NCBI GenBank assembly: GCA_027053075.1
Contig: JALUEE010000086.1
Coordinates: 1-64,000, forward strand
Direction of reading: 5' to 3'
From: a candidate division WOR-3 bacterium
GTDB lineage: Bacteria; Hydrothermota; Hydrothermia; B15-G9; WFZT01
DNA length: 64,000 nt
Part shown: piece after piece, positions 20,113 through 34,380 of the stretch
Numbering within the stretch: position 1 is the first letter of the stretch
How the letters are laid out: the number at the start of each line of letters is the position of its first letter
Program-made: the position numbers and the translations under genes
Notes under the pieces: model-generated
The model's input: the letters and a program-made list of their open reading frames with translations, nothing else
Databases searched by the model: none
What the model was told of the DNA's origin: nothing

Positions 20113-21270
20113 CTATTTCTGGCTGAAAAACTCGGAAACGATTTTTACTATTCTCTCCGCGGCACGGCCGTCACCGTAGGGATTGATAGCTTTTGCCATA
20201 CTTTCGTATGCCTTTTTATCCCGCAGTAATCGGGATGCTTCGTTGAATATCTTTCCCCGGTCAGTTCCTACAAGTTTTGCAATTCCTGCATCAACCCCTT
20301 CCATTCGTTCTGTAACCTCTCTCATGACCAGAACAGGTTTGCCGAAGGATGGAGCTTCCTCCTGAATTCCACCGGAGTCAGTTAGCACCAGGTAAGATTT
20401 CTCTAAAAGGTATATCAGCGTCGGGTAATCTACAGGATCGATGAGGTGGAGGTTATCCAGATTCCCAAGAATCTCGAATACGGGTTTTCTTACGTTGGGA
20501 TTGAGGTGAACAGGATAGACGATTTCTACCTCGTCTTTGAAGGTAAGAGCGATGTCCTTTAATGCCAGGCAGAGATTTTCAAATGGCTTTCCAAAGCTCT
20601 CCCTTCGGTGGGCAGTAACTAAAATAAGCTTTTTACCGGATTTGATTTTCTCAATAAGGCCGGGTGCTACATTCTCAAGGGACTGCTCTATTTCTCTGTC
20701 GAGCCCTCTGTTTTTAATAATTTCTATGGCCTGAAGATTTGCATCGACCACGGTGTTGCCTGTAACAAAAATCATTTCATCGGGTATCCCCTCATTAAGC
20801 AGGTTTTTTCGGGCGGTTTCAGTAGGCGCGAAATGAAGGTCGGTGAGTCTACCAACGAGTACCCTGTTTATCTCCTCTGGAAACGGAGAGTATTTGTTGT
20901 GACTTCTAAGCCCCGCTTCCACATGTCCAACCGGAATTTTGTAATAGAAGGCGGAAAGGGCACCTGTAAAGGCGGTGGTTGTGTCACCCTGGACGATTAA
21001 AAGGTCGGGTTTCATTTCTTTAAGGGCCTTTTCGTAACCCCTTACGCTGTCCACAGTAATGTCGAAAAGAGTCTGGTTAGGTCTCATTATCTGCATATCG
21101 CAATGTGGCTTAATGCCAAAAAAATTGACGGGCTGGTATAGCATCTCCTGATGCTGTCCGGTGAGGCAGACAACAGTTTCAAACTCCGGATGCTTTTCAA
21201 ATTCCCTTATGACAGGGGCAAGTTTGATTGCTTCTGGTCTTGTCCCAAAAGTTATAAAAATTCTTTTCAT
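20113..21270 (-). CDS. wecB: UDP-N-acetylglucosamine 2-epimerase (non-hydrolysing)
   Basis: FGTRPEAIKLAP, QGDTTT, HVEAGLRS, TDSGGIQEEAP, NPYGDG. Confidence 0.96.
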   Translation of the reverse strand: MKRIFITFGTRPEAIKLAPVIREFEKHPEFETVVCLTGQHQEMLYQPVNFFGIKPHCDMQIMRPNQTLFDITVDSVRGYEKALKEMKPDLLIVQGDTTTAFTGALSAFYYKIPVGHVEAGLRSHNKYSPFPEEINRVLVGRLTDLHFAPTETARKNLLNEGIPDEMIFVTGNTVVDANLQAIEIIKNRGLDREIEQSLENVAPGLIEKIKSGKKLILVTAHRRESFGKPFENLCLALKDIALTFKDEVEIVYPVHLNPNVRKPVFEILGNLDNLHLIDPVDYPTLIYLLEKSYLVLTDSGGIQEEAPSFGKPVLVMREVTERMEGVDAGIAKLVGTDRGKIFNEASRLLRDKKAYESMAKAINPYGDGRAAERIVKIVSEFFSQK

Positions 21271-22847
21271 CGCGAGAAATATTCCTTGAGTTCAGGGAGG
21301 TCCACAGGACTGACAAATGTATACCCCATAGCCTGCAATCCCCTTATTACCTTTTTTAACGATTCTATCCCGTAAAAATGTTCAGCATCGGTGTAGTCTG
21401 CCAGTGAGGGGTGCCAGAAGAATGAGGCAATGCCATCTCTCACTGCGAGAAGGTATCTGGCATGAGCTATCACGCTGTCCGGTGGTCTCACATCATTTAG
21501 ATAATTACTGATGTATCCAAGGTTTTCCGGGATCAGGGTTTCCCCATAAATGTCCCAGTAAATTACATAAGGAAAGAACTGATTTTCGTACATAACTTCG
21601 TCCGGGGATTCCATGTATAAGGCCGGTCTGTGGTAGTTTAGATTAAACATTTTCCCAAATATAAAAAAGTCCATCCTCGAGGCCGCGTAGTGTGGAACTT
21701 CAAAGCCGGACACCGGCAGACCGGCGAGCTGAAACTCCTTTAGGCCCTTCTTTATCCTCTGGTAAACCCACATCATGTTGTCGCCGGGAACAGGTATTTT
21801 TGTGTCAAAGTCAAAATACTCGTAGGCGAGAGCCGAGATATTGTACTTTTGCCATGTTGTTATATCCTGCTGATGCGACGTACCATGCATAAAAATATAT
21901 CCCCCGTGGTTTACAGCATATTTTAAAACTTCTACAAGGCCTTTAGCCTCATGGAGATAAACAACTTTGTCGTTATAGGGATTTTTGTAAATGGGGATTA
22001 CTGCCATGGCAAAGGGAATATTATGAGAATATAGGTACTTAACGACTTTTCTTAACTTTGAGGGTTCAAGGGTAGGATCAATGTCTTCGAGTCTCACAAG
22101 GGCTCTGGGTGGATAAGAATGTTGTTGATTGAGCATATCATGGAGTAAATCGCAAAAAATGGTGTATGGAGTATAAGTTGCAATAAAAGACATAGGGTCA
22201 CCTGCAACGTACCAGAAATTGTTTACCCGTATGATGTAAGGTATCTCGTCCCTCCTGGGCCTTCCATATCCCCACCATTTTATAGTTGCAATAACCTCTG
22301 CTTTTGAAGAGTCGAGAATATGGGTGACAGCTACTTCAGGGTCCCACTCCGGCTCTTTCTTTCCCGGGTAAACCTTAAACCACTTCTGGAAATTTACACC
22401 TTTATATGTGACATTTCTGTAGAAGCCGGCTTTACCATTGACAAAGTAACCGATAGACAGGGAATCCATTACGAAACCGAATCGATCCCGCATATTGGCT
22501 CCAACTTCAAAAGAGAAGTTGTTTATATTCTTTTTAAACCACACCACAGGTTTTTTATATCTAAGCAGGTCCTTTAAGAAATCTGGATTTATGTAAGAGT
22601 TATCCACTTCTCCCATGTAAAAGACAGCATCAAAATTAAAGATATCACCCTTTGTGTACTCATTTGTAGGCTCATGATAGTATATGAATTTAAAGTGGCC
22701 AAGTAGATTCTCCAGCTCATACAGATCGAGTACATAGTAGGAGTACTCTGACTTGGGGGATGCAATCGGATCGAAGAGAATTAGTGCATTCCCTTTAATC
22801 TGTGACGGTTTGATTACGCTAAAAAGAATAAGTAAAAGTTTAAACAT
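21267..22847 (-). CDS. DUF2334-type polysaccharide deacetylase-like protein, exported
   Basis: RLEDIDP, MHGTSHQ, FEVPHY, SFFWHP motifs; N-terminal signal-like segment. Confidence 0.78.
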   Translation of the reverse strand: MFKLLLILFSVIKPSQIKGNALILFDPIASPKSEYSYYVLDLYELENLLGHFKFIYYHEPTNEYTKGDIFNFDAVFYMGEVDNSYINPDFLKDLLRYKKPVVWFKKNINNFSFEVGANMRDRFGFVMDSLSIGYFVNGKAGFYRNVTYKGVNFQKWFKVYPGKKEPEWDPEVAVTHILDSSKAEVIATIKWWGYGRPRRDEIPYIIRVNNFWYVAGDPMSFIATYTPYTIFCDLLHDMLNQQHSYPPRALVRLEDIDPTLEPSKLRKVVKYLYSHNIPFAMAVIPIYKNPYNDKVVYLHEAKGLVEVLKYAVNHGGYIFMHGTSHQQDITTWQKYNISALAYEYFDFDTKIPVPGDNMMWVYQRIKKGLKEFQLAGLPVSGFEVPHYAASRMDFFIFGKMFNLNYHRPALYMESPDEVMYENQFFPYVIYWDIYGETLIPENLGYISNYLNDVRPPDSVIAHARYLLAVRDGIASFFWHPSLADYTDAEHFYGIESLKKVIRGLQAMGYTFVSPVDLPELKEYFSR

Positions 22848-22851
22848 TTTA

Positions 22852-24042
22852 TCACCTCGCTATATAAAACCCAAATCTAAAGTCCCAGTAGGAATTGGAA
22901 TTGTATGGATTTGGTTCGCCTGATTCAATACCTGCATAGTAGCCCCTGACGAGTTTAGTAAAAAATACCAGCCAGTAAACATATGTCAAATCAATTTCGG
23001 GACCGATTTCGGAGAGGTTGTTGTAGTATAATTTCCTCCTGTCTCTTAAGAACTTAAAGTAAATTGAGGGCTCGAGGGTGAATTTCCCGAATTTTTTCTG
23101 ATAACCAGTATTAGTCTCTATGTCGAGGGTGACGTTGTTATCCACACGTTTTTCATAATTTACCTCTGAATAGAGGGAGAAAATGAGGTTTCCTAATTTG
23201 CCCATAGAGTGAATCCAATCTTTGCTCAGGAAAGCCAGAAGCTGGTAATTTGTTCCTTCCATCACGGGCTTCCATATTTTCACCCTTTTGTAGTAACCAT
23301 AATAGGCGAATACGGATATAAGATAGCGCCAGCTCCAGGCAAGTCCCAGGTAGGTGAAGATATGGTCGTCTTCGTAAACATTTGTTCTTCCAGACCTCGA
23401 GTCGTATAAAAACCGAACACCCGCAAGAGGTTTTATCCCCCAGAGATTACCCAGATAAATGTTGAGCCTTGTATCTGAATCGACGAAATTTTCACGTGCG
23501 GTGTAGTAGGTGCCCCAGTAAAAACTGTATGTAAATGGTGTGTAGTGGGTGGTTTCAAGGTAATGGGTCATCACCTGACGAATGCTATCATTCAAGGTCA
23601 CCTTTAGCACCCTTTCCGCTATTTTGCGTTTTTCCTTAACATTGTCCTCGTAGAGGTCGAAAAGGGTTAGCAGAAGGTCCTCATTGTAGGGAAATTTTTT
23701 CAGCACTTTTTTAAACATCTTTATGGCCTTGCCGGTTTTACCGATCTCGAGCAGAAAATAGCCATAATCCGTGTAGTAGTAGGCAGCTGCAGGCTTGAAT
23801 TTCATCAGCTTTTCGAAGAAGTATTTTGCTTTTTTATAGTACTTCCTATTCCAATAGTAGTAGGCTGAGTCTCCATAGATACTGACAGAATCAGGATTTG
23901 AGGCAGCTTTGAAAAGTTTTTTATAAATCCTCACTGGGGGACGCCTTAAATGAACGTTTTTATAGTACTGGGGCGGTGGAACCTCCTTCAATGGCTGTGG
24001 GGTTTGAGAAAATATTAAAATAGAAATGAAAAATCCTGTCAT
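22852..24042 (-). CDS. TPR + outer-membrane beta-barrel protein (NfrA/YaiO-like export role)
   Basis: Signal peptide, TPR-like helices, alternating aromatic strands in C-terminal half; operon position. Confidence 0.6.
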   Translation of the reverse strand: MTGFFISILIFSQTPQPLKEVPPPQYYKNVHLRRPPVRIYKKLFKAASNPDSVSIYGDSAYYYWNRKYYKKAKYFFEKLMKFKPAAAYYYTDYGYFLLEIGKTGKAIKMFKKVLKKFPYNEDLLLTLFDLYEDNVKEKRKIAERVLKVTLNDSIRQVMTHYLETTHYTPFTYSFYWGTYYTARENFVDSDTRLNIYLGNLWGIKPLAGVRFLYDSRSGRTNVYEDDHIFTYLGLAWSWRYLISVFAYYGYYKRVKIWKPVMEGTNYQLLAFLSKDWIHSMGKLGNLIFSLYSEVNYEKRVDNNVTLDIETNTGYQKKFGKFTLEPSIYFKFLRDRRKLYYNNLSEIGPEIDLTYVYWLVFFTKLVRGYYAGIESGEPNPYNSNSYWDFRFGFYIAR

Positions 24043-26135
24043 TTTTTAATTTTTTTAAGTGATTTCCTTTTTTGTCGAGAAGGAAAACCTGGTTTCTCGG
24101 GGTTAATTTGTGATCCTGGAGTAATGGTCTTTAAACGTTTTCTCGATCTTATAATTTTTTTAAAGCCAATGACGATGAAACGCAAAAGTGTGAGTGCAAT
24201 GAAAATACCTATTAGAACAAGCGGGATTATGATCAGGAGTTTATAGTAATTCTGCAGGAAGAAATACCTCATATCGAACTTGGCTTTTTGCGGTCCCCAG
24301 TAACTGGTGCGCCTCGTCAATTTGCAATTCGTTATGTCACCCTCCGTATTCAAAGTTGCAAGATTTCCATAGGCTGCATTTAATTTTTCCGGAGATCTAA
24401 AAAGTTTAACAAATACTGATGCATTTTCTGGAGTGCTATAAGAGAGATAAAGGTAAGCATTTCTTTCTTTGCCAACATCTTCGTAAATGAAGGGTTGGGG
24501 GGCTTTGGCAGGATGGAAATTCCCTATCATTACGGCATTTTGTGATAGTTGTCTTATCCCATTGAGCGTTTCTTCTGTGAGGAGAGGAACCTCTGGAAAA
24601 ACCTGCTTAGACCCTATAAATCTGAGGAATTCAAGATAAATCTTAAAATTATTCTGGTTTAACTTATCCAGCACAATATAAGTTTTCTTTTTGTAAGGAG
24701 AATAGCCAAAGGGAAAGGCATAATATTTCAAATAAGCTAAATTAGGCATTTCGATTATCCACTTACGCGTCATTTTGAAAAGAGTTTTAGGCAGGATTTC
24801 TACCCATAGTAAAGATGAGTCTTCAAGGGGTACTTTGGGGACGGTTTTAAATTCAAACTTGATTCTGTTCTCAGGTTTTAGGCTCTGCCAGGGAATAACC
24901 ACTTCTTTTCCTGAATCTGAGCAAGGACCAATATAACTTTCGTCAAAGAGCAATTCCCCATCTATCGTGATTTTTAATTTACTCTTTCGAAGATTTACGA
25001 ATTGGGAAGTTTTCATATAAAGTCTCATAATCTGAGAGTATGGGAGAAAATTCATACCTGGGAGAAATCGAAGCGGTAAATAAAATGTATTTTTCCCCCC
25101 GTAGAATTTAGCAGAGCCTTTATATACGTCAGAAAAGTAAAAATATTCGGGATCCTGTCCAAGAATGATGGGTTTTCTATTGAATTTTATAAATCCGGGT
25201 TCTATAAGCTCTAAATTCGTGACGAAGTCTTTACCCCTTTCAATGAGGGCAATAGCTGCATTCAAAACCGCATTGTCTGAGTTTCCAGTGATAATAAGTA
25301 CCGGGTAACCATTCGCGTTATTGGAAGTGATGATTATCCCCATATCATCCGGAATCTTTGCCCCGTTACTTTGAGCCCAGTAGTAGCTTGTATCACTTTG
25401 TTTCAGGATTAACTGTGAGGATAGCCTTATCACTTCCTGGAGAGTTGGATCAAAATACTGCTCATCTGGCGTACCAACAATTATACTTATACCTTTACGG
25501 ATACTCCCCACGTCGTTTGTGATATCTATAATGGGGAAATCTTTCTCAGTGCGTGAGGCAAGGTCCTCAAGAATGTATGATAAGCCGACAGACGTTACAG
25601 GACTAAGTTTTTCTGGCAGCTGGAAATATACAATTCTGTCCGGGTTGTAGTCTTCACTAAGTATAAACTCTGGATATCTACTAATTATGTAAGGGGTGGC
25701 AAGGTAATTTATCAACCCCTTTATGTACATGTTGTTAATGTCAATATAACCGATGCAGTTTGTAGCAAGTGATTTTAAAGAGACAGATATTTCGATAACG
25801 GTCAAACTTTTTAGCAAATACGTAGGAATTGGCACAGTAAGTTCACCACCATGAGTGTCAAGGTTGAAAAAACCGATAAAATCTCCATTAACGGCGAGTC
25901 CTAATTTAAGAGGGACTTCGCAGTTAAGTACACTGTAATCGATAACAAGGTAGGCCTTACTGAATGATTCTGCTGAATAAGTCAAATGGAAGCTCCGCTT
26001 GGCATAGTCATTGGGTAAATTCAATCTAATAAGAGATTTCGTACCCTTTTTATAGAGAGTAAAATCACGCCATGCAAACTGAGCATGTACTACACTTGAG
26101 GATAATATTAAAAGTAAAAAAAATCTAAATTTCAG
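24039..26135 (-). CDS. BcsB-like co-polymerase subunit; probable CTG start
   Basis: PNLAYLKYYAFPF, PVLIITGNS, C-terminal TM plus basic tail; frame stays open upstream of 26024 to CTG at 26135 adding a signal peptide. Confidence 0.7.
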   Translation of the reverse strand: MKFRFFLLLILSSSVVHAQFAWRDFTLYKKGTKSLIRLNLPNDYAKRSFHLTYSAESFSKAYLVIDYSVLNCEVPLKLGLAVNGDFIGFFNLDTHGGELTVPIPTYLLKSLTVIEISVSLKSLATNCIGYIDINNMYIKGLINYLATPYIISRYPEFILSEDYNPDRIVYFQLPEKLSPVTSVGLSYILEDLASRTEKDFPIIDITNDVGSIRKGISIIVGTPDEQYFDPTLQEVIRLSSQLILKQSDTSYYWAQSNGAKIPDDMGIIITSNNANGYPVLIITGNSDNAVLNAAIALIERGKDFVTNLELIEPGFIKFNRKPIILGQDPEYFYFSDVYKGSAKFYGGKNTFYLPLRFLPGMNFLPYSQIMRLYMKTSQFVNLRKSKLKITIDGELLFDESYIGPCSDSGKEVVIPWQSLKPENRIKFEFKTVPKVPLEDSSLLWVEILPKTLFKMTRKWIIEMPNLAYLKYYAFPFGYSPYKKKTYIVLDKLNQNNFKIYLEFLRFIGSKQVFPEVPLLTEETLNGIRQLSQNAVMIGNFHPAKAPQPFIYEDVGKERNAYLYLSYSTPENASVFVKLFRSPEKLNAAYGNLATLNTEGDITNCKLTRRTSYWGPQKAKFDMRYFFLQNYYKLLIIIPLVLIGIFIALTLLRFIVIGFKKIIRSRKRLKTITPGSQINPEKPGFPSRQKRKSLKKIKK

Positions 26136-28195
26136 ATTCTCCTCCTTGTGAGTTTTTTCCCGATTTTTTTGAAATGAGGAGTAACGGAAGTGCCAAAGAT
26201 TTCGTCCATCACATCTTTAAATGATATATTGGATAGGTCGTCAAAATTGAGATTTTCTAACTCTTGCCATAGGCCATTATTTTGTTCTACCTCAAATTCA
26301 TCAAGGCCACTATCTTTTAATTTCTTTGTTAATACCAGAAGCTTGGGTTCCGCAAAAGATTCTACAAAGTATCTAAATTCTGATTTTGAAATAATTGTGG
26401 GCACAACAACTTTGCCCAGTTTTTCCGAAACTTCTTTTATCAGCTTATCTGATGGAGGTTCAACAAATCCCACTTCTATAAAGTTTTCAGTCTCCCTCAG
26501 AGGCAATAAGTGATTCTGGGAGATGAATTCCCCACCAAGTTTCTCAATTAAATGCTGAGGCAGGTCATCTGGTAATTCTTCAATAAATTCAAGTCCCTGC
26601 TGAATGGCGAGAAATTTTGAAATCTGGTCCTCAGACAGTAGGCCCATTTCAACGAGGATTTCCCCAAGCTTCCTTTTTGACTTTTTCTGAATATTAAGAG
26701 CGTGCTCAAGATGCTCCTTTGTGATAACCTTCTGCTCAAGTAAGAGTTCACCAAGACGTTTCTTGTAAGCTGTAAGCTGCTCCGTCCTCGGGAATTGATG
26801 GGTTGTTTTAGCCCATGTAAGTGGTTTATTGAACACTTTATAGGCGATATACCTAACGAGCGCGTTGTAAACAGCAAGGAAATTTATGAGATTAAGCCAT
26901 GGAACTCGTAATACACTGTATAGCCCTTGCTTGAATCCATAGATCACAGTAACGGCATAAACTTTCATAAGCAGGCGCTCGAATAACATTACGGTGTTGA
27001 AAAATATAACCCACCAAATGAAACCTTCGCCAGGAATGAATCTTGATAAGTTCCACCCTGTATGAAGGAGTTTCCCAAGTAAAACGTAAGTCCATCCAGA
27101 TATAAATAAGACATTGGTCAAAAAACTAATTATAGATGACCATACACCCTTACGGTCTTTATAAAGGTAGAATTTGTCTATTGCTTTGCCACGCCATTTG
27201 ATTTTCTCAGTTCCCTGAAAGATTATTCCCAACATCCACCTTGTTTTCTGCCTAATAGCTGCCGAAAACTTAAACGGGAAGTATTCTCTTGTTGCAATAA
27301 AATCATTTTTGTACTCAAAATGTTTACGCAAAAATCCAGGTAAAATTTTTATCCATTTTGAGTGTCGTTTTACCCGAATCACACGTTTGAGTAGGACCTG
27401 TTTGCCGCCGATATCTTTGATATGTTTGCCTACTACATAGTCTTCAGTAAGCGAATCAGTATCAAAAAGCAGATTGTTTTTCTCCTTCGCAAGCCTTTCG
27501 AGAATTCTGCGTGAAAAAGCTGTTCCGACACCAGCCGATGGAACAAATCCACCAAGAACATACCTTACATAAATTTCTTTTAAATGGTGCTCTGCAAATT
27601 CATCCATATAGGTGCCAGCAGTGAAGTTCCTGAAAGGTACCTCGAGAGAGAAAACAGGAATTTGAATCATGTCATACTCATCGGCAAGATAGTTGACAAG
27701 TTTTAGCGATAAAGGATGAATAATGTCTTCTGCATCGTGCATGAGGACAACATCAAACTTTTTACCGGTATTTTGCTCGTATTTGAGCATATTCTGATAT
27801 ATCCAGTTTAGATTATCTGCCTTATTTGTCGGTCCGTCGTGTGGTACCAGTGCCATGTGGACATTGGGATAAATTCTTTCGACTTTGGCCACCTTCATCT
27901 TAGTATCGAAATCGTTGGGATAGACACCAATGAATATGTGGTAATTCGTGTAGGCGATGGAACTTACATTGTGTTTGATCATGTCTTCTATAACTTCTGC
28001 TTCACGCCACGCAGGAAGAAAAATGGATATGGATTTTTCCGGTACATTACCAAGTTCCTCCAGATCAATCTTTATTTTTTCACCATTGATGGTTCTTAAA
28101 ATGAAATACAATATATCTGAAAAGAGGTCATCTAATCCTCCAATAAAAACGCCCCAAATTGTGATATACACGAGTGCGAAGATTATTCCATGCAT
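26132..28195 (-). CDS. nfrB: NfrB-like GT2 polysaccharide synthase with tandem MshEN c-di-GMP-binding motifs
   Basis: PAWRE, HDGPTNKADNLN, HDAED, PSAGVG, SLTEDY, QKTRW, WAKTTH; RLGELLL..ALNIQ and KLGEILV..LAIQ. Confidence 0.9.
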   Translation of the reverse strand: MHGIIFALVYITIWGVFIGGLDDLFSDILYFILRTINGEKIKIDLEELGNVPEKSISIFLPAWREAEVIEDMIKHNVSSIAYTNYHIFIGVYPNDFDTKMKVAKVERIYPNVHMALVPHDGPTNKADNLNWIYQNMLKYEQNTGKKFDVVLMHDAEDIIHPLSLKLVNYLADEYDMIQIPVFSLEVPFRNFTAGTYMDEFAEHHLKEIYVRYVLGGFVPSAGVGTAFSRRILERLAKEKNNLLFDTDSLTEDYVVGKHIKDIGGKQVLLKRVIRVKRHSKWIKILPGFLRKHFEYKNDFIATREYFPFKFSAAIRQKTRWMLGIIFQGTEKIKWRGKAIDKFYLYKDRKGVWSSIISFLTNVLFISGWTYVLLGKLLHTGWNLSRFIPGEGFIWWVIFFNTVMLFERLLMKVYAVTVIYGFKQGLYSVLRVPWLNLINFLAVYNALVRYIAYKVFNKPLTWAKTTHQFPRTEQLTAYKKRLGELLLEQKVITKEHLEHALNIQKKSKRKLGEILVEMGLLSEDQISKFLAIQQGLEFIEELPDDLPQHLIEKLGGEFISQNHLLPLRETENFIEVGFVEPPSDKLIKEVSEKLGKVVVPTIISKSEFRYFVESFAEPKLLVLTKKLKDSGLDEFEVEQNNGLWQELENLNFDDLSNISFKDVMDEIFGTSVTPHFKKIGKKLTRRRI

Positions 28196-28199
28196 GATA

Positions 28200-28580
28200 T
28201 TATAAATTTACCTCAATTTTACCATTTTTAACAATGTAGTCAAGCCTTTTAAGATTTTTTCTTGCGGGACCGTGGATGACGGTTCCATTAATAGTAAACT
28301 CACTACCGTGGCAAGGGCATTTAAAGATACCTGCTTCTCGATCATATTTCAGTATACACCCAAGATGCGTGCAATGTGAGCTATAAACCCAGTAAGTATC
28401 ATTTTCACGCCATACAATAACGCCATCTATTACTGAGGGCTTTGTGCTCACCTGAGCCATAGGAATACTCAATTTCTGGCGCTTTTTCAGCGAGAATGAA
28501 ATAAAATCCCAGATGAGTTTTCCACTTATTAAAAAAATTAAGAAACCAAATATGCGGGATAAAAAATCACGTCGATTCAT
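28200..28580 (-). CDS. Small Tat-exported Rieske [2Fe-2S] protein
   Basis: MNRRDFL twin-arginine motif, TM helix, CTHLGC and CPCHGS. Confidence 0.9.
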   Translation of the reverse strand: MNRRDFLSRIFGFLIFLISGKLIWDFISFSLKKRQKLSIPMAQVSTKPSVIDGVIVWRENDTYWVYSSHCTHLGCILKYDREAGIFKCPCHGSEFTINGTVIHGPARKNLKRLDYIVKNGKIEVNL

Positions 28581-28863: not shown

Positions 28864-29571
28864 CTATTTCATGAAAATGATTTTTCGCCTTAAAACAATT
28901 TTCCCTTTGTGTGTAATAGATAGAACATGTATTCCCAGAGACAAATTTTTGATTGTTATAGAACTACTTCGGGTGTGAATCTTCTTTTCAAGTCTTCCAT
29001 CAATACTATAAATATTTGCTGTGAATCCATCAGTAAAATTTGAGGACACGGTTACCTCATGCCCTATGTTTTGGCGAAGAGTTACTATTGGGAGGCTGGT
29101 TTGCTCTTCTATGCCAACAGGGGTTACGGTAATTGAGCCCGAATCCACTGTTAAAGGGATCGAGTCTGATACTGGATCAAGTAGATAGCATCTATCTATG
29201 TAAATGTTTACTACGGTAGTGGTATCGGGATTGCCCACCAGAAATTTTATATAAAAAAGAACTCCACTCCCCACTGGAATTGATCCACCCCACATAGAAA
29301 TATTGATCGTCAAATTTGTAGAGTCATAGGTGAAAGCTACGCCCCAGTCACTTATGAGGTCACCGGGAACAACTTGAATAGGATGTATTAATGGAACAGT
29401 TATAGATATCCAGAAATGGCCTGCAGTAACAGAGTCTGAAGCATTTATGTTGCTCACGAATACCGGATAGTTTAAAGTATCTCCTCCAGATGCTGTCATC
29501 TCAGGTAAAGATATATTTATTGTGGCAAACAGGGGTAGCGAAATAATAAGAGGTAGAAGTAATTTTTTCAT
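28864..29571 (-). CDS. Secreted cohesin-like domain protein with T9SS-like tail
   Basis: Signal peptide; ISLPEMTASGGDTLNYPVFV..GSGVLFYIKF..GSITV; tail IYSIDGRL...GIHVL...RKIIFMK. Confidence 0.6.
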   Translation of the reverse strand: MKKLLLPLIISLPLFATINISLPEMTASGGDTLNYPVFVSNINASDSVTAGHFWISITVPLIHPIQVVPGDLISDWGVAFTYDSTNLTINISMWGGSIPVGSGVLFYIKFLVGNPDTTTVVNIYIDRCYLLDPVSDSIPLTVDSGSITVTPVGIEEQTSLPIVTLRQNIGHEVTVSSNFTDGFTANIYSIDGRLEKKIHTRSSSITIKNLSLGIHVLSITHKGKIVLRRKIIFMK

Positions 29572-29589
29572 GATTGTCTCCTGTTTTAA

Positions 29590-29628
29590 AACGGGGCGGG
29601 GAGTGATGAAATCACTCCCCGCCCCGTT
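29590..29628 (-). terminator. Hairpin between the two T9SS-tailed genes
   Basis: 18-bp perfect stem, GAA loop, T tracts on both sides. Confidence 0.7.
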
Positions 29629-29649
29629 CTCTTTTAATAAAACACACCC

Positions 29650-31353
29650 TTACCTCAGGATAACCAGCTTTGTGAGTAAGTTCGCCTCGGAAGATTTAAC
29701 CCGTACAAAATAAACTCCCATTGGAAGGTTACCGACATGTAACCTACTTAATGTTCCATTCACTTCTTTCGCCACTAACCTTCTTCCATCGATAGAATAC
29801 AACTCCACCATGAAACTTCCCATTATCCTGGAATTAAAGTACAGAGAGCCTTCACGATAGTTAACTCTCAAGTTGTTTATATTTGTATTGTAAACGTAGT
29901 ATGTATTATCGAACCCCGCTTTTTTGATCAAAGGCCTCGCTTCATAATCGGATTTATAGTGAATGTCAAAAATGTGGCCATTTATTTTGCCATTTACCGT
30001 TACAGCTGCAATTTTAATCACTCCTTTTCCAATACTATAGTCGTAAATTAAGTCCGCAGGAGCACCCGAAGCCTTAGTTATTCCCGTGATTGTTACAGAT
30101 GGATTATATTTTATTTCTACCGTAAATCCGTGAGCTAAACTTTTCACGTATACTTTGGAAACGGTTCTTCCAGGGGTAAAGTCTTCTACTTTCACAACGG
30201 GTGCTTCACTGGAATTTCCTTTCTTGGCGTAGTTCCCATCCACATCTCCCAATAAGTAACCGGTGAAATCTGCATTCGTTACATTAGAAGTAAGATCATT
30301 GTAATCTTTCCAGTATGGATAGAAGAACCAAAATCCTGTGTAATTATCGGCAACGTGGTCAGGTCTTCCAACAAGGTATGCAAGAATCGATCTTACATCA
30401 TTTTCGTTCAGGTTGTTTTCACCCACTCCCTGATTAGGGACATCATAAGGACTGTGAGCAAAATGACTGTCCCCCTGCTGTGTATTTGCTACTCTTTTCT
30501 GATTGTCACTTAAAGAACCACCGCCCGCCAGAGTGTGAGCTACAAGATACGCGTCGTAAACGCTTATAGCAGAGTTAAAAAGACCACTGTCTTTTTCGAC
30601 ATAAACAGTATAGTCGTACCCCTGATTCAATCCAGAAAATAAAAATGTTCCATCACTTTCAGTGGTATCTACCGCAGAACCTATATTGCCACCTTCGAGA
30701 TAAACATACGCCTCAGCAATGTGGTGCCCATTCCATGTATCCACATGTCCCAATAATGATACTGGTTGAGGACTCTGGACATGAATTGTCTTAGTAAGAT
30801 CAGAACTTCCTAACAGTTGACCGTTATTATCGTATGCTTTTACACGGATGTGTAGATTTGTCTGTACCCCATCTGTCCATCCGAGCTGAAGGAAAAAGTA
30901 AACTACCAATGGGTTGGCATCATTGGTACCAGAAGAGAAACTACCGCCTGTAACTGCATAAACACGCGCATCTACTGGTGGAAATCCGCCAAGATTTCCA
31001 AATTGATCCCAGAAAGATGTGTCCACATACGCACCAGCAGCAGGGAACATCCACCTATTTGGATCTGAAGGAATTAGATTATCGTACCAGTCCCGTGCCT
31101 GACCATGCCACATGATATGCGGATAATCTTCACCGTTATAAAAATAAGCAACATCTCCGTCATCGACGTACAGCGAGCAAACAACCGATACGACGTTGTC
31201 ACTGGAGTTAAGTCCTGTCCAGATAATGGAGTCCACCATCACAGAGCCAGGAGGCCCTGTTATGTCCCCGGAGGAAATTGTTCCGGGGAATGCACCATAC
31301 ATTGTCCCCAGTAAGAATACCAGGGATGCAACCACCACTTTGTTGGCCTTCAT
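29650..31353 (-). CDS. Secreted multidomain protein with dockerin-like helices and T9SS-like tail
   Basis: Signal peptide; TTESDGTFLFSGL Ig-like module; ISVYDAYLVAHTLAG and LNENDVRSILAYLVG; LLGDVDGN; LYSIDGRRL...LPMGVYFVRV...KLVILR. Confidence 0.65.
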   Translation of the reverse strand: MKANKVVVASLVFLLGTMYGAFPGTISSGDITGPPGSVMVDSIIWTGLNSSDNVVSVVCSLYVDDGDVAYFYNGEDYPHIMWHGQARDWYDNLIPSDPNRWMFPAAGAYVDTSFWDQFGNLGGFPPVDARVYAVTGGSFSSGTNDANPLVVYFFLQLGWTDGVQTNLHIRVKAYDNNGQLLGSSDLTKTIHVQSPQPVSLLGHVDTWNGHHIAEAYVYLEGGNIGSAVDTTESDGTFLFSGLNQGYDYTVYVEKDSGLFNSAISVYDAYLVAHTLAGGGSLSDNQKRVANTQQGDSHFAHSPYDVPNQGVGENNLNENDVRSILAYLVGRPDHVADNYTGFWFFYPYWKDYNDLTSNVTNADFTGYLLGDVDGNYAKKGNSSEAPVVKVEDFTPGRTVSKVYVKSLAHGFTVEIKYNPSVTITGITKASGAPADLIYDYSIGKGVIKIAAVTVNGKINGHIFDIHYKSDYEARPLIKKAGFDNTYYVYNTNINNLRVNYREGSLYFNSRIMGSFMVELYSIDGRRLVAKEVNGTLSRLHVGNLPMGVYFVRVKSSEANLLTKLVILR

Positions 31354-31809: not shown

Positions 31810-34380
31810 ATGTTTTTCTTCATTCTTATCCTCACTGCCCTCAACTCTCAAAATGGCTGGTATTATCTCTACACCATTGAACCAGATTCTACAGAGCAGA
31901 GCGTATATAATCCGGAAATTGATAGCAGTCAGATTAAATTATATGGTGAGAAAAGAATTTCTGTGAGCACCAGCTCTGACGGTGGCTTCAAGGTCTATCA
32001 GGACCTGAGCCTCTCCATTGGTGGAAAATTGGGGAAATACGGTGAAATAAACGGAATCATCAATGACAACAGTGACACCCACCTGGGGTTTGTATCCAAG
32101 AACCTTGCGGGATACAGTGAGGTTTATCTCAAATACACCTATAAAAATTTCACATCCAGATTTGGAAGGCTTGAATTTGACGCACCTGGGATCTCAACTC
32201 CTTTGCTTGGTGGAGCGATTTCGCTGGGAGTGAAGGGTGTGGCCGGGGATTTCGCCGCAGGCGAAATCCCCGGCCACACAAAATCCGTTTCCTTCACCGA
32301 TATCACCAACCCCAATATCCCCCTCAAAATTACCTCGAAAGGCGAGTATATCGTCGAAAACACCGAAAGGGTCTTCCTCAATTCGCGTTCCCTCAAACGA
32401 GGTGAGGATTATAGCATTGATTACACAGCCGGAATAATTTACCTCCTGCCCGGACTCACCATCACACCTGAAGATGTGCTAAGGGTTCAATTCATTTCCA
32501 CAGGCTCTCTTGGTAAGAGGACGCTAAAAAACGCAGGAATCAGATTTTCTGCATCGGGGCTCCGCGGGCGTATGCTTTTTACGGAAACTTCAGATGATGC
32601 CCTATACTGGGAGCGTGTGCTGGGCAGGGATGCCCTCTCAATATTGAAAAATTCAACTGGTCTTGCAAAGATTCCCGGATGGAAATACGTGGGGAGTGGA
32701 AACGGAGACTATACCCGCGAGGACAGCATTTTCGTATATGAAGGGCATAATCAGGGGGATTACACTGTCAACTTTTCCTTTGTCGGAAATGGAAAAGGTG
32801 AATACGAATTCAACGATGCGGGCGGTTACTTTGAATTTGTCGGGACAGGTGGAAGCTACACACCCTATATTTTCATTGAGACACCTGCGAGAGAAAGAAG
32901 GTTTTACGGTGAACTCAGGGCAGAGAAAAATGGATTTTTTACTGAGAATGTGCTCCGGGCTTCAGAAAATACTCCAAACATTTTTAACTCATCTGGATTA
33001 AAGAGAGACTTTAGTGGAATATGGAGTGCTGGCTTTAAAAATTCATGGTTTTATGCGGATTTTAGGTATTTCAGAGAAATTGATTCCCTCTGGATGTTCA
33101 ACCGGGATAATCTCCACGGTGATGGATATTCAATCGGGGCAAAATTTGGAAGATTAGGAGCGATTAAACCTGAATTTTTCTACGCTCGTATGGGTGAAAA
33201 TTTTCTTGGAAGATTAAGAATCTCGGGCACTTTTATTACTGATTACTCTCTTTCAGTGTGTGTGACCGATACGGATAAAATCTACAATGGCGAGGTGGGC
33301 TATGAAATTGGGACAGGCAGGATTTCTCTTGGCTATGAAAAATACGAGGGCAGGTCCCGGAGTTATCAGGAGATTAAAAGTGGATTTTCCTATCAAAATT
33401 TCTTTCAACTGGATTTCAGCGAGAGGCTGAGGAGTGGGGGGACAGACAACATCCTGTCCATTGGCTTAGAGCGCGGCAACACGAGCCTCTCGTACCGAAT
33501 GGTCAGAGTAGGGGAGAGGGACAGAGATTCGCTTTACCACGCACTTTATTTCACGAGTGAGGGAATTAATCAGGGAGTTTCGTACTCGCTGAGATTACTT
33601 TACAGGGATGACAGGTATCAGAGTCTGAGCTACCGATTTGTCTATGTAGGGGATGGCAACGGGAGCTTCTCCTACGATTCGACAACGGGCAGTTTTTACA
33701 GAGACCCGCTCGGGAGCTATGAACGGGAAGTTTTGCCCTATTCCACTTCAAAACCCGTGAAGAGCGTCTCGGCTTCCTTTTCCCTGGGATACGGTGTGAT
33801 TAGCGTTGACCTATCGGGTGATTCGAGATTTTCAGATATGCGAAACCCTTTGATTTTTAGGGGAAATTTTAACCTTCGGGCGAGTCCGGGCAGATGGTTT
33901 TTAATCTATTCACGAAATGAAAACCTCTGGTCAGATGGGCGGGAGAGTTACCAGATGGCGGATATTTCGCGGAAAATGAAGATCACAGTGGGAGCCTCGT
34001 ACGAGGACTCAAAGGAATTTATAGGATTTATCCGCAGGCGATACAGGATTTATACGAAGTCGGGGCTCGGAAAAGACCTTTTGCTCACCACAGGTGTTTT
34101 TTACCGCAATCTGATTTTTAAAAAGATTTACAGCTCACCTGGCTTTAACCTTGACCTTGAATTCAAAAAGGGCATCGGAGACCTTGAGCTTGGGCTCAAC
34201 GCTGGCATTTCTTATTCAAAAAAATCGCCTCTTGTAGAAAGTGGGATGATAGGAAATTATCGGCTGGTACTTTCGCGGGAGATTTCCTCAAAAACCATCC
34301 TGAGTGGTGAGATTTATGGTAGAGTTTCAGAGGGCAGAAACGTTTACAATGCCAGGGCCACGGTTTCATTTGAGTTTTGA
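31810..34380 (+). CDS. Large hypothetical outer-membrane protein
   Basis: Hydrophobic N-terminus, amphipathic strands, terminal Phe; repeated [YF]VG-x-G-x-G-x-[YF] units. Confidence 0.65.
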   Translation: MFFFILILTALNSQNGWYYLYTIEPDSTEQSVYNPEIDSSQIKLYGEKRISVSTSSDGGFKVYQDLSLSIGGKLGKYGEINGIINDNSDTHLGFVSKNLAGYSEVYLKYTYKNFTSRFGRLEFDAPGISTPLLGGAISLGVKGVAGDFAAGEIPGHTKSVSFTDITNPNIPLKITSKGEYIVENTERVFLNSRSLKRGEDYSIDYTAGIIYLLPGLTITPEDVLRVQFISTGSLGKRTLKNAGIRFSASGLRGRMLFTETSDDALYWERVLGRDALSILKNSTGLAKIPGWKYVGSGNGDYTREDSIFVYEGHNQGDYTVNFSFVGNGKGEYEFNDAGGYFEFVGTGGSYTPYIFIETPARERRFYGELRAEKNGFFTENVLRASENTPNIFNSSGLKRDFSGIWSAGFKNSWFYADFRYFREIDSLWMFNRDNLHGDGYSIGAKFGRLGAIKPEFFYARMGENFLGRLRISGTFITDYSLSVCVTDTDKIYNGEVGYEIGTGRISLGYEKYEGRSRSYQEIKSGFSYQNFFQLDFSERLRSGGTDNILSIGLERGNTSLSYRMVRVGERDRDSLYHALYFTSEGINQGVSYSLRLLYRDDRYQSLSYRFVYVGDGNGSFSYDSTTGSFYRDPLGSYEREVLPYSTSKPVKSVSASFSLGYGVISVDLSGDSRFSDMRNPLIFRGNFNLRASPGRWFLIYSRNENLWSDGRESYQMADISRKMKITVGASYEDSKEFIGFIRRRYRIYTKSGLGKDLLLTTGVFYRNLIFKKIYSSPGFNLDLEFKKGIGDLELGLNAGISYSKKSPLVESGMIGNYRLVLSREISSKTILSGEIYGRVSEGRNVYNARATVSFEF

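Follow-up and report, generated by a model that had tools for sequence, protein, structure and literature searches.

A predicted NfrB-type polysaccharide export operon with an intact DUF2334 gene, a BcsB-like gene and a leading Rieske gene in a candidate division WOR-3 bacterium

We analysed a six-gene cluster in a stretch of 64,000 nucleotides (nt) from a candidate division WOR-3 bacterium (contig JALUEE010000086.1; this whole stretch is called the window below). All six open reading frames (ORFs) were confirmed on the minus strand, at 20113..28580 of the window. With moderate confidence, we read the cluster as an NfrB-family, synthase-dependent export operon for a surface polymer that contains N-acetylmannosamine (ManNAc), is switched by cyclic di-GMP (c-di-GMP) and is partly de-N-acetylated, with the first gene, encoding a Rieske protein, as a passenger. 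This mix of parts is largely known; what appears new is an intact DUF2334 gene together with a BcsB-like gene in an Nfr-type operon, and the Rieske gene at its head. The features, in the direction of the genes, are:

28200..28580, minus strand: small Rieske [2Fe-2S] protein, 126 residues, with a twin-arginine-like N-terminus and one hydrophobic helix (PF00355, 3.7e-12)
28216..28243, minus strand: sigma70-like promoter candidate, TTGACT-16 nt-TAAAAT, within the last Rieske codons (consensus match)
26132..28195, minus strand: NfrB-family processive glycosyltransferase family 2 (GT2) synthase, 687 residues, with a C-terminal MshEN domain (NF012033, NF053729, alignment with E. coli NfrB)
26600..26758, minus strand: predicted tandem MshEN c-di-GMP-binding motifs, synthase residues 480-532 (motif and profile matches)
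24039..26135, minus strand: BcsB-like periplasmic protein, 698 residues, with a signal-like N-terminus and a C-terminal transmembrane anchor at residues 633-651 (PF03170, profile, hydropathy, tree)
22852..24042, minus strand: compact exporter of tetratricopeptide repeats (TPR) and a predicted outer-membrane beta-barrel, 396 residues, distantly NfrA/PgaA-like (HHalign, Atlas, partial model)
21267..22847, minus strand: DUF2334 protein, 526 residues, predicted Agd3/NDST1/PelA-like metal-dependent de-N-acetylase (PF10096, model, Foldseek, motifs)
20113..21270, minus strand: wecB, non-hydrolysing UDP-GlcNAc 2-epimerase, which makes UDP-ManNAc (TIGR00236)

An earlier note on this DNA had described six co-oriented genes with 4-nt overlaps or gaps, and the coordinates bear this out: from the Rieske gene to wecB the junctions are +4, -4, -4, +4 and -4 nt, and 606 nt separate wecB from the next gene downstream. 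Pfam and NCBIfam searches of the six proteins gave the gene identities proposed in the note and returned no glycoside hydrolase or GGDEF family match, in line with its statement that neither a glycoside hydrolase nor a diguanylate cyclase gene lies in the cluster. Among 272 genomes of the phylum, matches to the synthase, to the DUF2334 profile and to PF03170 were found in the same six, which belong to one genus and all keep the gene order Rieske, synthase, BcsB, TPR, DUF2334, wecB. The whole cluster lies on a single contig in genomes G000, G036 and G039 and is broken across contig ends in G035, G037 and G038; its flanks vary among the genus genomes, and the DUF2334 gene is duplicated (two copies) in G036 and G038. 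A recent transfer into this genome was rejected, as orthologues of the cluster proteins are 43-96% identical within the genus and low GC content at third codon positions is limited to the Rieske, synthase and BcsB-like genes (percentiles 2-8).

By its sequence, the synthase is a member of the NfrB family. It scored 540.6 bits against NF012033 (cut-off 537) and 69.8 bits against the MshEN model NF053729 (cut-off 38), matched the Pfam families PF13641 (GT2, 8.8e-37) and PF05157 (MshEN), and aligned with E. coli NfrB at 36% identity across 597 residues. The QxxRW motif and the two MshEN motifs reported in the earlier note were both seen in the protein: the catalytic motifs are D154xxD157, T250-E-D252 and Q316-K-T-R-W320, and the MshEN motifs occupy residues 480-503 and 509-532. 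In the alignment, D154, D252 and W320 correspond to E. coli NfrB D169, D267 and W330, and L481/G482 and L510/G511 to L490/G491 and L518/G519, all of them residues that were mutated in the E. coli protein (PMC8669469, PMC8669472; papers are cited here by PubMed Central (PMC) number, and for excerpts of their text). The top PDB sequence matches of the MshEN region were the c-di-GMP domains of PilF and MshE. Six GGDEF matches were found in the genome, all outside the cluster, so that a cyclase has to be supplied from elsewhere and the cluster is not self-contained, as had been claimed. The nearest sisters of the synthase in a FastTree phylogeny were three rows (P0016-P0018) that carry no gene context.

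The BcsB-like protein scored 50.3 bits against PF03170 (cut-off 21), and its family profile, which contains canonical-like homologues, matched a solved BcsB at 3.5e-61. Its frame has no ATG near the start; the gene most likely starts at the CTG at 26135, because this codon overlaps the synthase stop (CTGA), has AGGAGG 5 nt upstream and stands where relatives carry an ATG (Met) start. A structure prediction of synthase residues 1-475 with BcsB-like residues 330-665 gave a binding score of 0.50 (runs 0.59, 0.50 and 0.19; best of three controls 0.00), with at least 69% of the contacts common to the runs and a predicted local distance difference test (pLDDT) value of at least 75 for the partner; in the calibration, passing scores of 0.60 or less came from 18 of 157 solved complexes and from both of the mismatched pairs that passed (2 of 215). 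A contact between the two proteins is thereby weakly predicted, and its score may stem from likeness to the solved BcsA-BcsB complex. In a quick tree, the BcsB-like protein was sister to a stand-alone paralog of the genus on contig C4, among cellulose-type BcsB proteins, and proteobacterial nfr-linked BcsB formed a distinct clade. Because the tree, a quick one only, places the protein apart from the nfr-linked clade, we rejected joint inheritance with proteobacterial nfr BcsB; the gene was probably recruited separately. The paralog (L138:9264-11168; G000:C4:31263-33167, minus strand) has no synthase nearby, and the other genus genomes have a similar third BcsB-type match. A separate and complete cellulose-type locus (L160:3952-15445; G000:C33:41951-53444) holds a BcsQ-like ATPase, a PilZ-bearing BcsA, a canonical BcsB whose matches within the phylum are limited to this genus, BcsC and, on the opposite strand, a glycoside hydrolase family 8 (GH8) gene.

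The barrel of the exporter is predicted from profile comparison and language-model look-alikes, not from the structure model. HHalign matched the exporter to an NfrA-family alignment (97.3%, E 2.4e-11) over 289 columns spanning TPR and barrel, and Atlas, which lists language-model look-alikes, placed NfrA_C first (0.93, 141 shared features) and gave the PgaA barrel 0.90; the Pfam matches were weak and to TPR only. Several results weigh against an Nfr-type assignment of the cluster. The synthase reached 504 bits against the E. coli NfrB equivalog NF008411, under the cut-off of 1170. The exporter gave no Pfam match to NfrA_C (PF13283), its match to E. coli NfrA alone was confined to the TPR part, and single-sequence AlphaFold2 returned confident TPR helices with an unfolded barrel (mean pLDDT 43.5). 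YbcH (DUF4434) was found in 0 of the 6 genus genomes. We conclude that the cluster would work like Nfr and PGR systems but, given the absence of YbcH and a divergent pore, is not a canonical NfrBA-YbcH operon.

The DUF2334 protein is predicted to be an Agd3/NDST1/PelA-like de-N-acetylase with its metal motifs intact. It matched PF10096 at 1.8e-43, and a model built from a 10-row alignment (pLDDT 77.6, predicted TM-score 0.82) retrieved NDST1 (2.6e-12), Agd3 (4.9e-11) and PelA (2.7e-8) with Foldseek, together with carbohydrate esterase family 4 (CE4) enzymes. Identity to Agd3 (CE18), PelA (CE21), PelA-DA (CE26) and NDST1 was 10-14%, with a TM-score to the query of 0.36-0.42, and PDB sequence searches with the protein gave nothing significant (best profile E 0.014). 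The putative catalytic residues, placed by sequence and secondary structure rather than by superposition, are E254/D255, H321xxxH325, P385, R407 and H479; matching motifs have been defined for PelA-DA, Agd3 and PgdA (PMC13254593). The three motifs that we tested were all retained in 30 of 32 nfrB-linked DUF2334 proteins outside the genus. The substrate would probably be ManNAc, rather than GalNAc or GlcNAc as for Agd3, PelA and NDST1. We found no description of a deacetylase in an Nfr locus in the literature, of which Fig. 7B of PMC8669469 and Fig. S5 of PMC8669472 might show one. Among the papers searched, two name DUF2334, and neither, judged by its title and the opening of its abstract, concerns polysaccharides.

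Two observations speak against catalysis. At the position of the predicted base the protein has Glu254 instead of the Asp that is usual among the enzymes described in the excerpts of PMC13254593, and verrucomicrobial DUF2334 copies (described below) have lost the HxxxH and RxED motifs while the gene is still kept, so that a non-catalytic role of the DUF2334 protein is possible. The protein might then serve chiefly for binding or as a scaffold in the periplasm, filling the scaffold vacancy left by the absence of YbcH, or might act on another substrate, with the polymer exported fully acetylated. We consider this unlikely: the metal triad and the acid His are intact here, just as the motifs are in nearly all outside nfrB-linked copies, and the fold of the model matches active de-N-acetylases. 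Moreover, all six outside genome loci with DUF2334 also have YbcH, so DUF2334 is not a simple YbcH substitute, and we rejected a replacement of the one by the other.

The identity of wecB is clear from its 490 bits against TIGR00236 (cut-off 210). Could the polymer nevertheless not be based on ManNAc, with wecB serving another glycan, or not be gated by c-di-GMP, with vestigial MshEN motifs? The NGR and PGR polymers, which are phage receptors, are chemically uncharacterised in the excerpts of the Nfr and PGR papers (PMC8669469, PMC8669472, PMC12507263), a second, more distant epimerase-like gene lies on contig C87, and the first MshEN motif lacks its second Gly while the second begins with Lys. 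However, wecB is tied to the cluster by its 4-nt overlap with the DUF2334 gene, which it follows in 6 of 6 genomes, and the motifs of E. coli NfrB are no less imperfect, yet that protein binds c-di-GMP with a dissociation constant of ~1 uM (PMC8669469). The alternative is therefore rather improbable, and the product foreseen in the earlier note, containing ManNAc, partly de-N-acetylated and gated by c-di-GMP, is in our judgement likely, each property being deduced from homology.

In all six genomes of the genus, and across two upstream contexts, the Rieske gene comes first in the cluster and adjoins the synthase gene. Each genome has one Rieske match, with C70, H72, C88 and H91 invariant in all six, and the 6 genomes searched from the order's two other families gave none. 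Among Rieske loci outside the genus, a cytochrome b gene is adjacent in 16 of 24, whereas the short cytochrome b-like gene of this genome, with four invariant histidines, lies on a different contig from the cluster. It stands tail-to-tail with a GGDEF gene that has a periplasmic-type N-terminus (L139:1831-4100, on contig C16 of G000; the cytochrome b-like protein has 284 residues). This pair is kept in all six genomes of the genus, and within the order the cyclase was found only there (6 of 12 genomes).

What holds the Rieske gene in place is likely the promoter candidate inside its 3' end, for which the evidence is suggestive. The candidate lies 20 nt upstream of the synthase ATG here and 20-28 nt upstream across the six genomes. 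At the aligned position TTGA(C/T)T-16-TA(A/T)AAT scored 9-10 of 12 in all six, even where the peptide differs, and it was the sole site common to all six in 11,712 aligned positions of five gene sets, in the first sequence of which eight sites scored at least 9. A comparable site upstream of the Rieske gene was seen in only one of the six genomes. After synonymous recoding, the product of the P values for G035, G036, G038 and G039 was ~0.006, or ~0.04 when the eight candidates are allowed for. The promoter reading is weakened by four considerations: that product treats kin genomes as independent, which they are not; the protein sequence by itself makes such a site more likely (P 0.16-0.46 in each single genome); promoter-like sites are no commoner in the region than expected (17 found, 24.3 expected); and the 4-nt gap between the Rieske and synthase genes looks like translational coupling.

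Alternatively, the Rieske protein may be a working part that senses or relays membrane redox state via the cytochrome b, the adjoining cyclase passing the signal on to the synthase. The leading position of the gene, the conserved cytochrome b/cyclase pair, the invariant cofactor ligands of both redox proteins, and the finding that Rieske, cytochrome b, linked cyclase and synthase are all in the genus and none in the order's other searched families would all fit. Against this, the observations come from one genus, in which a shared order may be inheritance, a tail-to-tail orientation is a weak sign of common function, and no Rieske gene was found in 78 NfrB loci or 78 DUF2334 loci outside the genus. 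The promoter candidate would account for the linkage without any function of the protein, and we give the redox reading a low probability. The Rieske gene is thus probably not a subunit of the system, and the likely partner of its product is the unlinked cytochrome b. A bolder version, in which the Rieske/cytochrome b couple was divided between the c-di-GMP effector operon and the cyclase locus because it links membrane redox to a cationic, partly de-N-acetylated poly-ManNAc, and DUF2334 is the founding member of a family of ManNAc-polymer de-N-acetylases, is improbable.

In the favoured reading, an NfrB-type export operon with the Rieske gene as a passenger, WecB, whose epimerase family is plain from its profile match, would supply UDP-ManNAc to the synthase. 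By analogy with E. coli NfrB, the GT2 domain would be activated when c-di-GMP, made by cyclases from outside the cluster, binds to the tandem MshEN motifs. The BcsB-like protein, a clear member of its family, would dock on the synthase through the weakly predicted contact and guide the chain through the periplasm; the DUF2334 protein, judged by its fold and motifs, would remove some of the N-acetyl groups before export. The short TPR-barrel protein would then be the route of the chain through the outer membrane. The Rieske protein would work with the unlinked cytochrome b, while the 3' end of its gene would hold the operon promoter.

How the cluster compares with other lineages was examined in two surveys. 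From at least 594 confirmed NfrB matches in GTDB genomes we took the best 80, and from 326 metagenome loci with DUF2334 the best 80; two loci of the genus were dropped from each, leaving 78 outside loci. The DNA reached up to 10 kb on each side of a locus, and often less, and genes were counted with profiles built in this analysis. The 78 NfrB loci contained wecB in 50, an NfrA-type pore in 53, YbcH in 40 (missing from 38 within the fetched DNA), a BcsB-like gene in 35, and DUF2334 and the short barrel type in 6 each, the barrel with weak scores in two. BcsB and DUF2334 together occurred in 0 of 78, none of the 35 BcsB-bearing loci having DUF2334 in the fetched DNA; a genome-wide search of 5 of the 78 outside-locus genomes gave a DUF2334 match in 3. 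Of the metagenome loci, 47 were of the single-domain DUF2334 type; nfrB was present in 26 of these, or in 15 of 20 when only loci with 5 kb on either side are counted, and BcsB or Rieske in none. The remaining 31 were mostly long fusions, with wecB in 7, and in those examined DUF2334 lay beside or was fused to a non-NfrB GT2. In the loci L206, L211, L225, L231 and L232, with this arrangement, DUF2334 is part of proteins of 960-1430 residues, often with wecB as well; this architecture is possibly another ManNAc polymer system.

DUF2334 beside nfrB thus recurs across many phyla. The DUF2334-bearing loci fell into several separate clades of the synthase FastTree, among them the sister clade of E. 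coli NfrB, and relatives of the DUF2334 protein that are 27-35% identical over the full length were found in nfr loci of Gram-negative bacteria from several phyla. One Ralstonia megaplasmid, the one checked of 136 Ralstonia plasmid records matching DUF2334, reads nfrB-nfrA-wecB-DUF2334 (L258:3163-10608). In two betaproteobacterial loci, small ORFs with no Pfam match lie between nfrB and DUF2334 (L067:9681-10058 and L081:3309-3638). An Elusimicrobiota locus (L052:11878-19592) contains, besides NfrB and wecB, a short barrel, a further GT2 and a TPR protein with a fused CE4 deacetylase domain, and thus a deacetylase of a different type in an Nfr setting. In 251 genomes of Verrucomicrobiia, the class of G272 (locus L099), four further NfrB loci were found, three of them (L254-L256) with the order BcsB, degenerate DUF2334, short TPR barrel, NfrB, wecB. 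These have the same five components as the cluster and the same short barrel type (on weak profile scores), but differ in gene order, in a degenerate DUF2334 below Pfam detection, in a longer synthase and in lacking Rieske; we found no description of such loci in the literature. Because the five-part mix is present in Verrucomicrobia, we rejected the idea that the combination is unique to this lineage. Within the surveyed DNA, this genus alone was seen to pair BcsB with an intact predicted deacetylase of the DUF2334 family.

The combination was less novel than the earlier note had supposed, as NfrB, BcsB, pore and WecB together are in print (PMC8669472) and have been tested genetically (PMC12507263); nor does wecB stand out as linked here and unlinked elsewhere, since linkage of nfrB and wecB is described as a general rule (PMC8669469), in keeping with the survey. 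The closest described relative is the Acinetobacter PGR locus, which has an NfrB homolog (PgrC), a BcsB homolog (PgrD), a pore (PgrG) and WecB (PgrF) in one place and for which a ManNAc polymer is proposed; its glycan needs the BcsB homolog, as shown by genetics with complementation (PMC12507263). PGR also has PgrE, a YbcH/PgaB-C-like protein, and the degenerate cyclase PgrA, neither of which is in the cluster, whereas the cluster has DUF2334 and Rieske; the likeness to PGR is drawn from the described gene content. The word 'deacetylase' occurs 0 times in the main text of PMC12507263. Operons of Achromobacter, Pseudomonas and Burkholderia likewise combine wecB, a BcsB-like gene, nfrB and a pore (an arrangement of 32 of the 78 outside loci), in Achromobacter with O-acetyltransferases (PMC8669472), but their BcsB belongs to a separate clade and their acetylation is of the AlgF/AlgX type. 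The E. coli NGR system (NfrB-NfrA-YbcH with WecB; the glycan receptor of phage N4; PMC8669469, PMC8669472) shares the GT2 motifs DxD, TED and QxxRW, MshEN, a TPR-barrel exporter and, presumably, the dependence on WecB. Its exporter has 990 residues against 396 and belongs to a different barrel subfamily; the cluster has no YbcH, which in excerpts on the E. coli Nfr system contributes partly, carries the additional BcsB-like, DUF2334 and linked wecB genes, and has a synthase below the equivalog cut-off.

Other synthase-dependent systems are more distant. Cellulose Bcs has a PilZ-bearing BcsA, the GH8 enzyme BcsZ and the BcsC pore, none of which is in the cluster. A B. subtilis control genome matched PF03170 and PF10096 at the family level only, presumably through YdaN and YdaL. 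Bacillus Yda and its counterpart system, Listeria Pss, are not known to have NfrB/MshEN or an outer-membrane pore, unlike the cluster. In the Yda system the receptor is a separate protein, YdaK, and YdaJ is a putative hydrolase (PMC13274460); the cluster contains neither a GGDEF-type receptor nor a hydrolase. The earlier note had called the cluster a hybrid of Nfr and Pss/Yda; the component types stand, but the parts need not derive from Pss/Yda, since nfr loci of Gram-negative bacteria have DUF2334 relatives too and the BcsB-like protein falls beside the paralog of the genus in the tree.

The locus extends these systems by a single lineage and a single combination of genes, with no new principle. 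The recurrence of the DUF2334 module suggests that the product of many Nfr/PGR systems is a ManNAc polymer that resembles chitosan and is positively charged, a de-N-acetylated alternative to the O-acetylated forms already described, and the nfr linkage gives DUF2334 a testable function. The compact operon, with its own epimerase, could be expressed as one cassette.

Near the cluster, type IX secretion system (T9SS)-type sorting domains and a family 9 glycosyltransferase (GT9) of the heptosyltransferase type fit a diderm host. Between the Rieske gene and an 856-residue ORF lie two genes (window 28864-31353, minus strand) for secreted-type proteins that carry cohesin-like and T9SS sorting domains; both genes are missing from that place in G035, G037 and G039. 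The 856-residue protein (window 31810-34380, plus strand), with no Pfam match and a weak SprA-like stretch, adjoins the cluster in four genomes.

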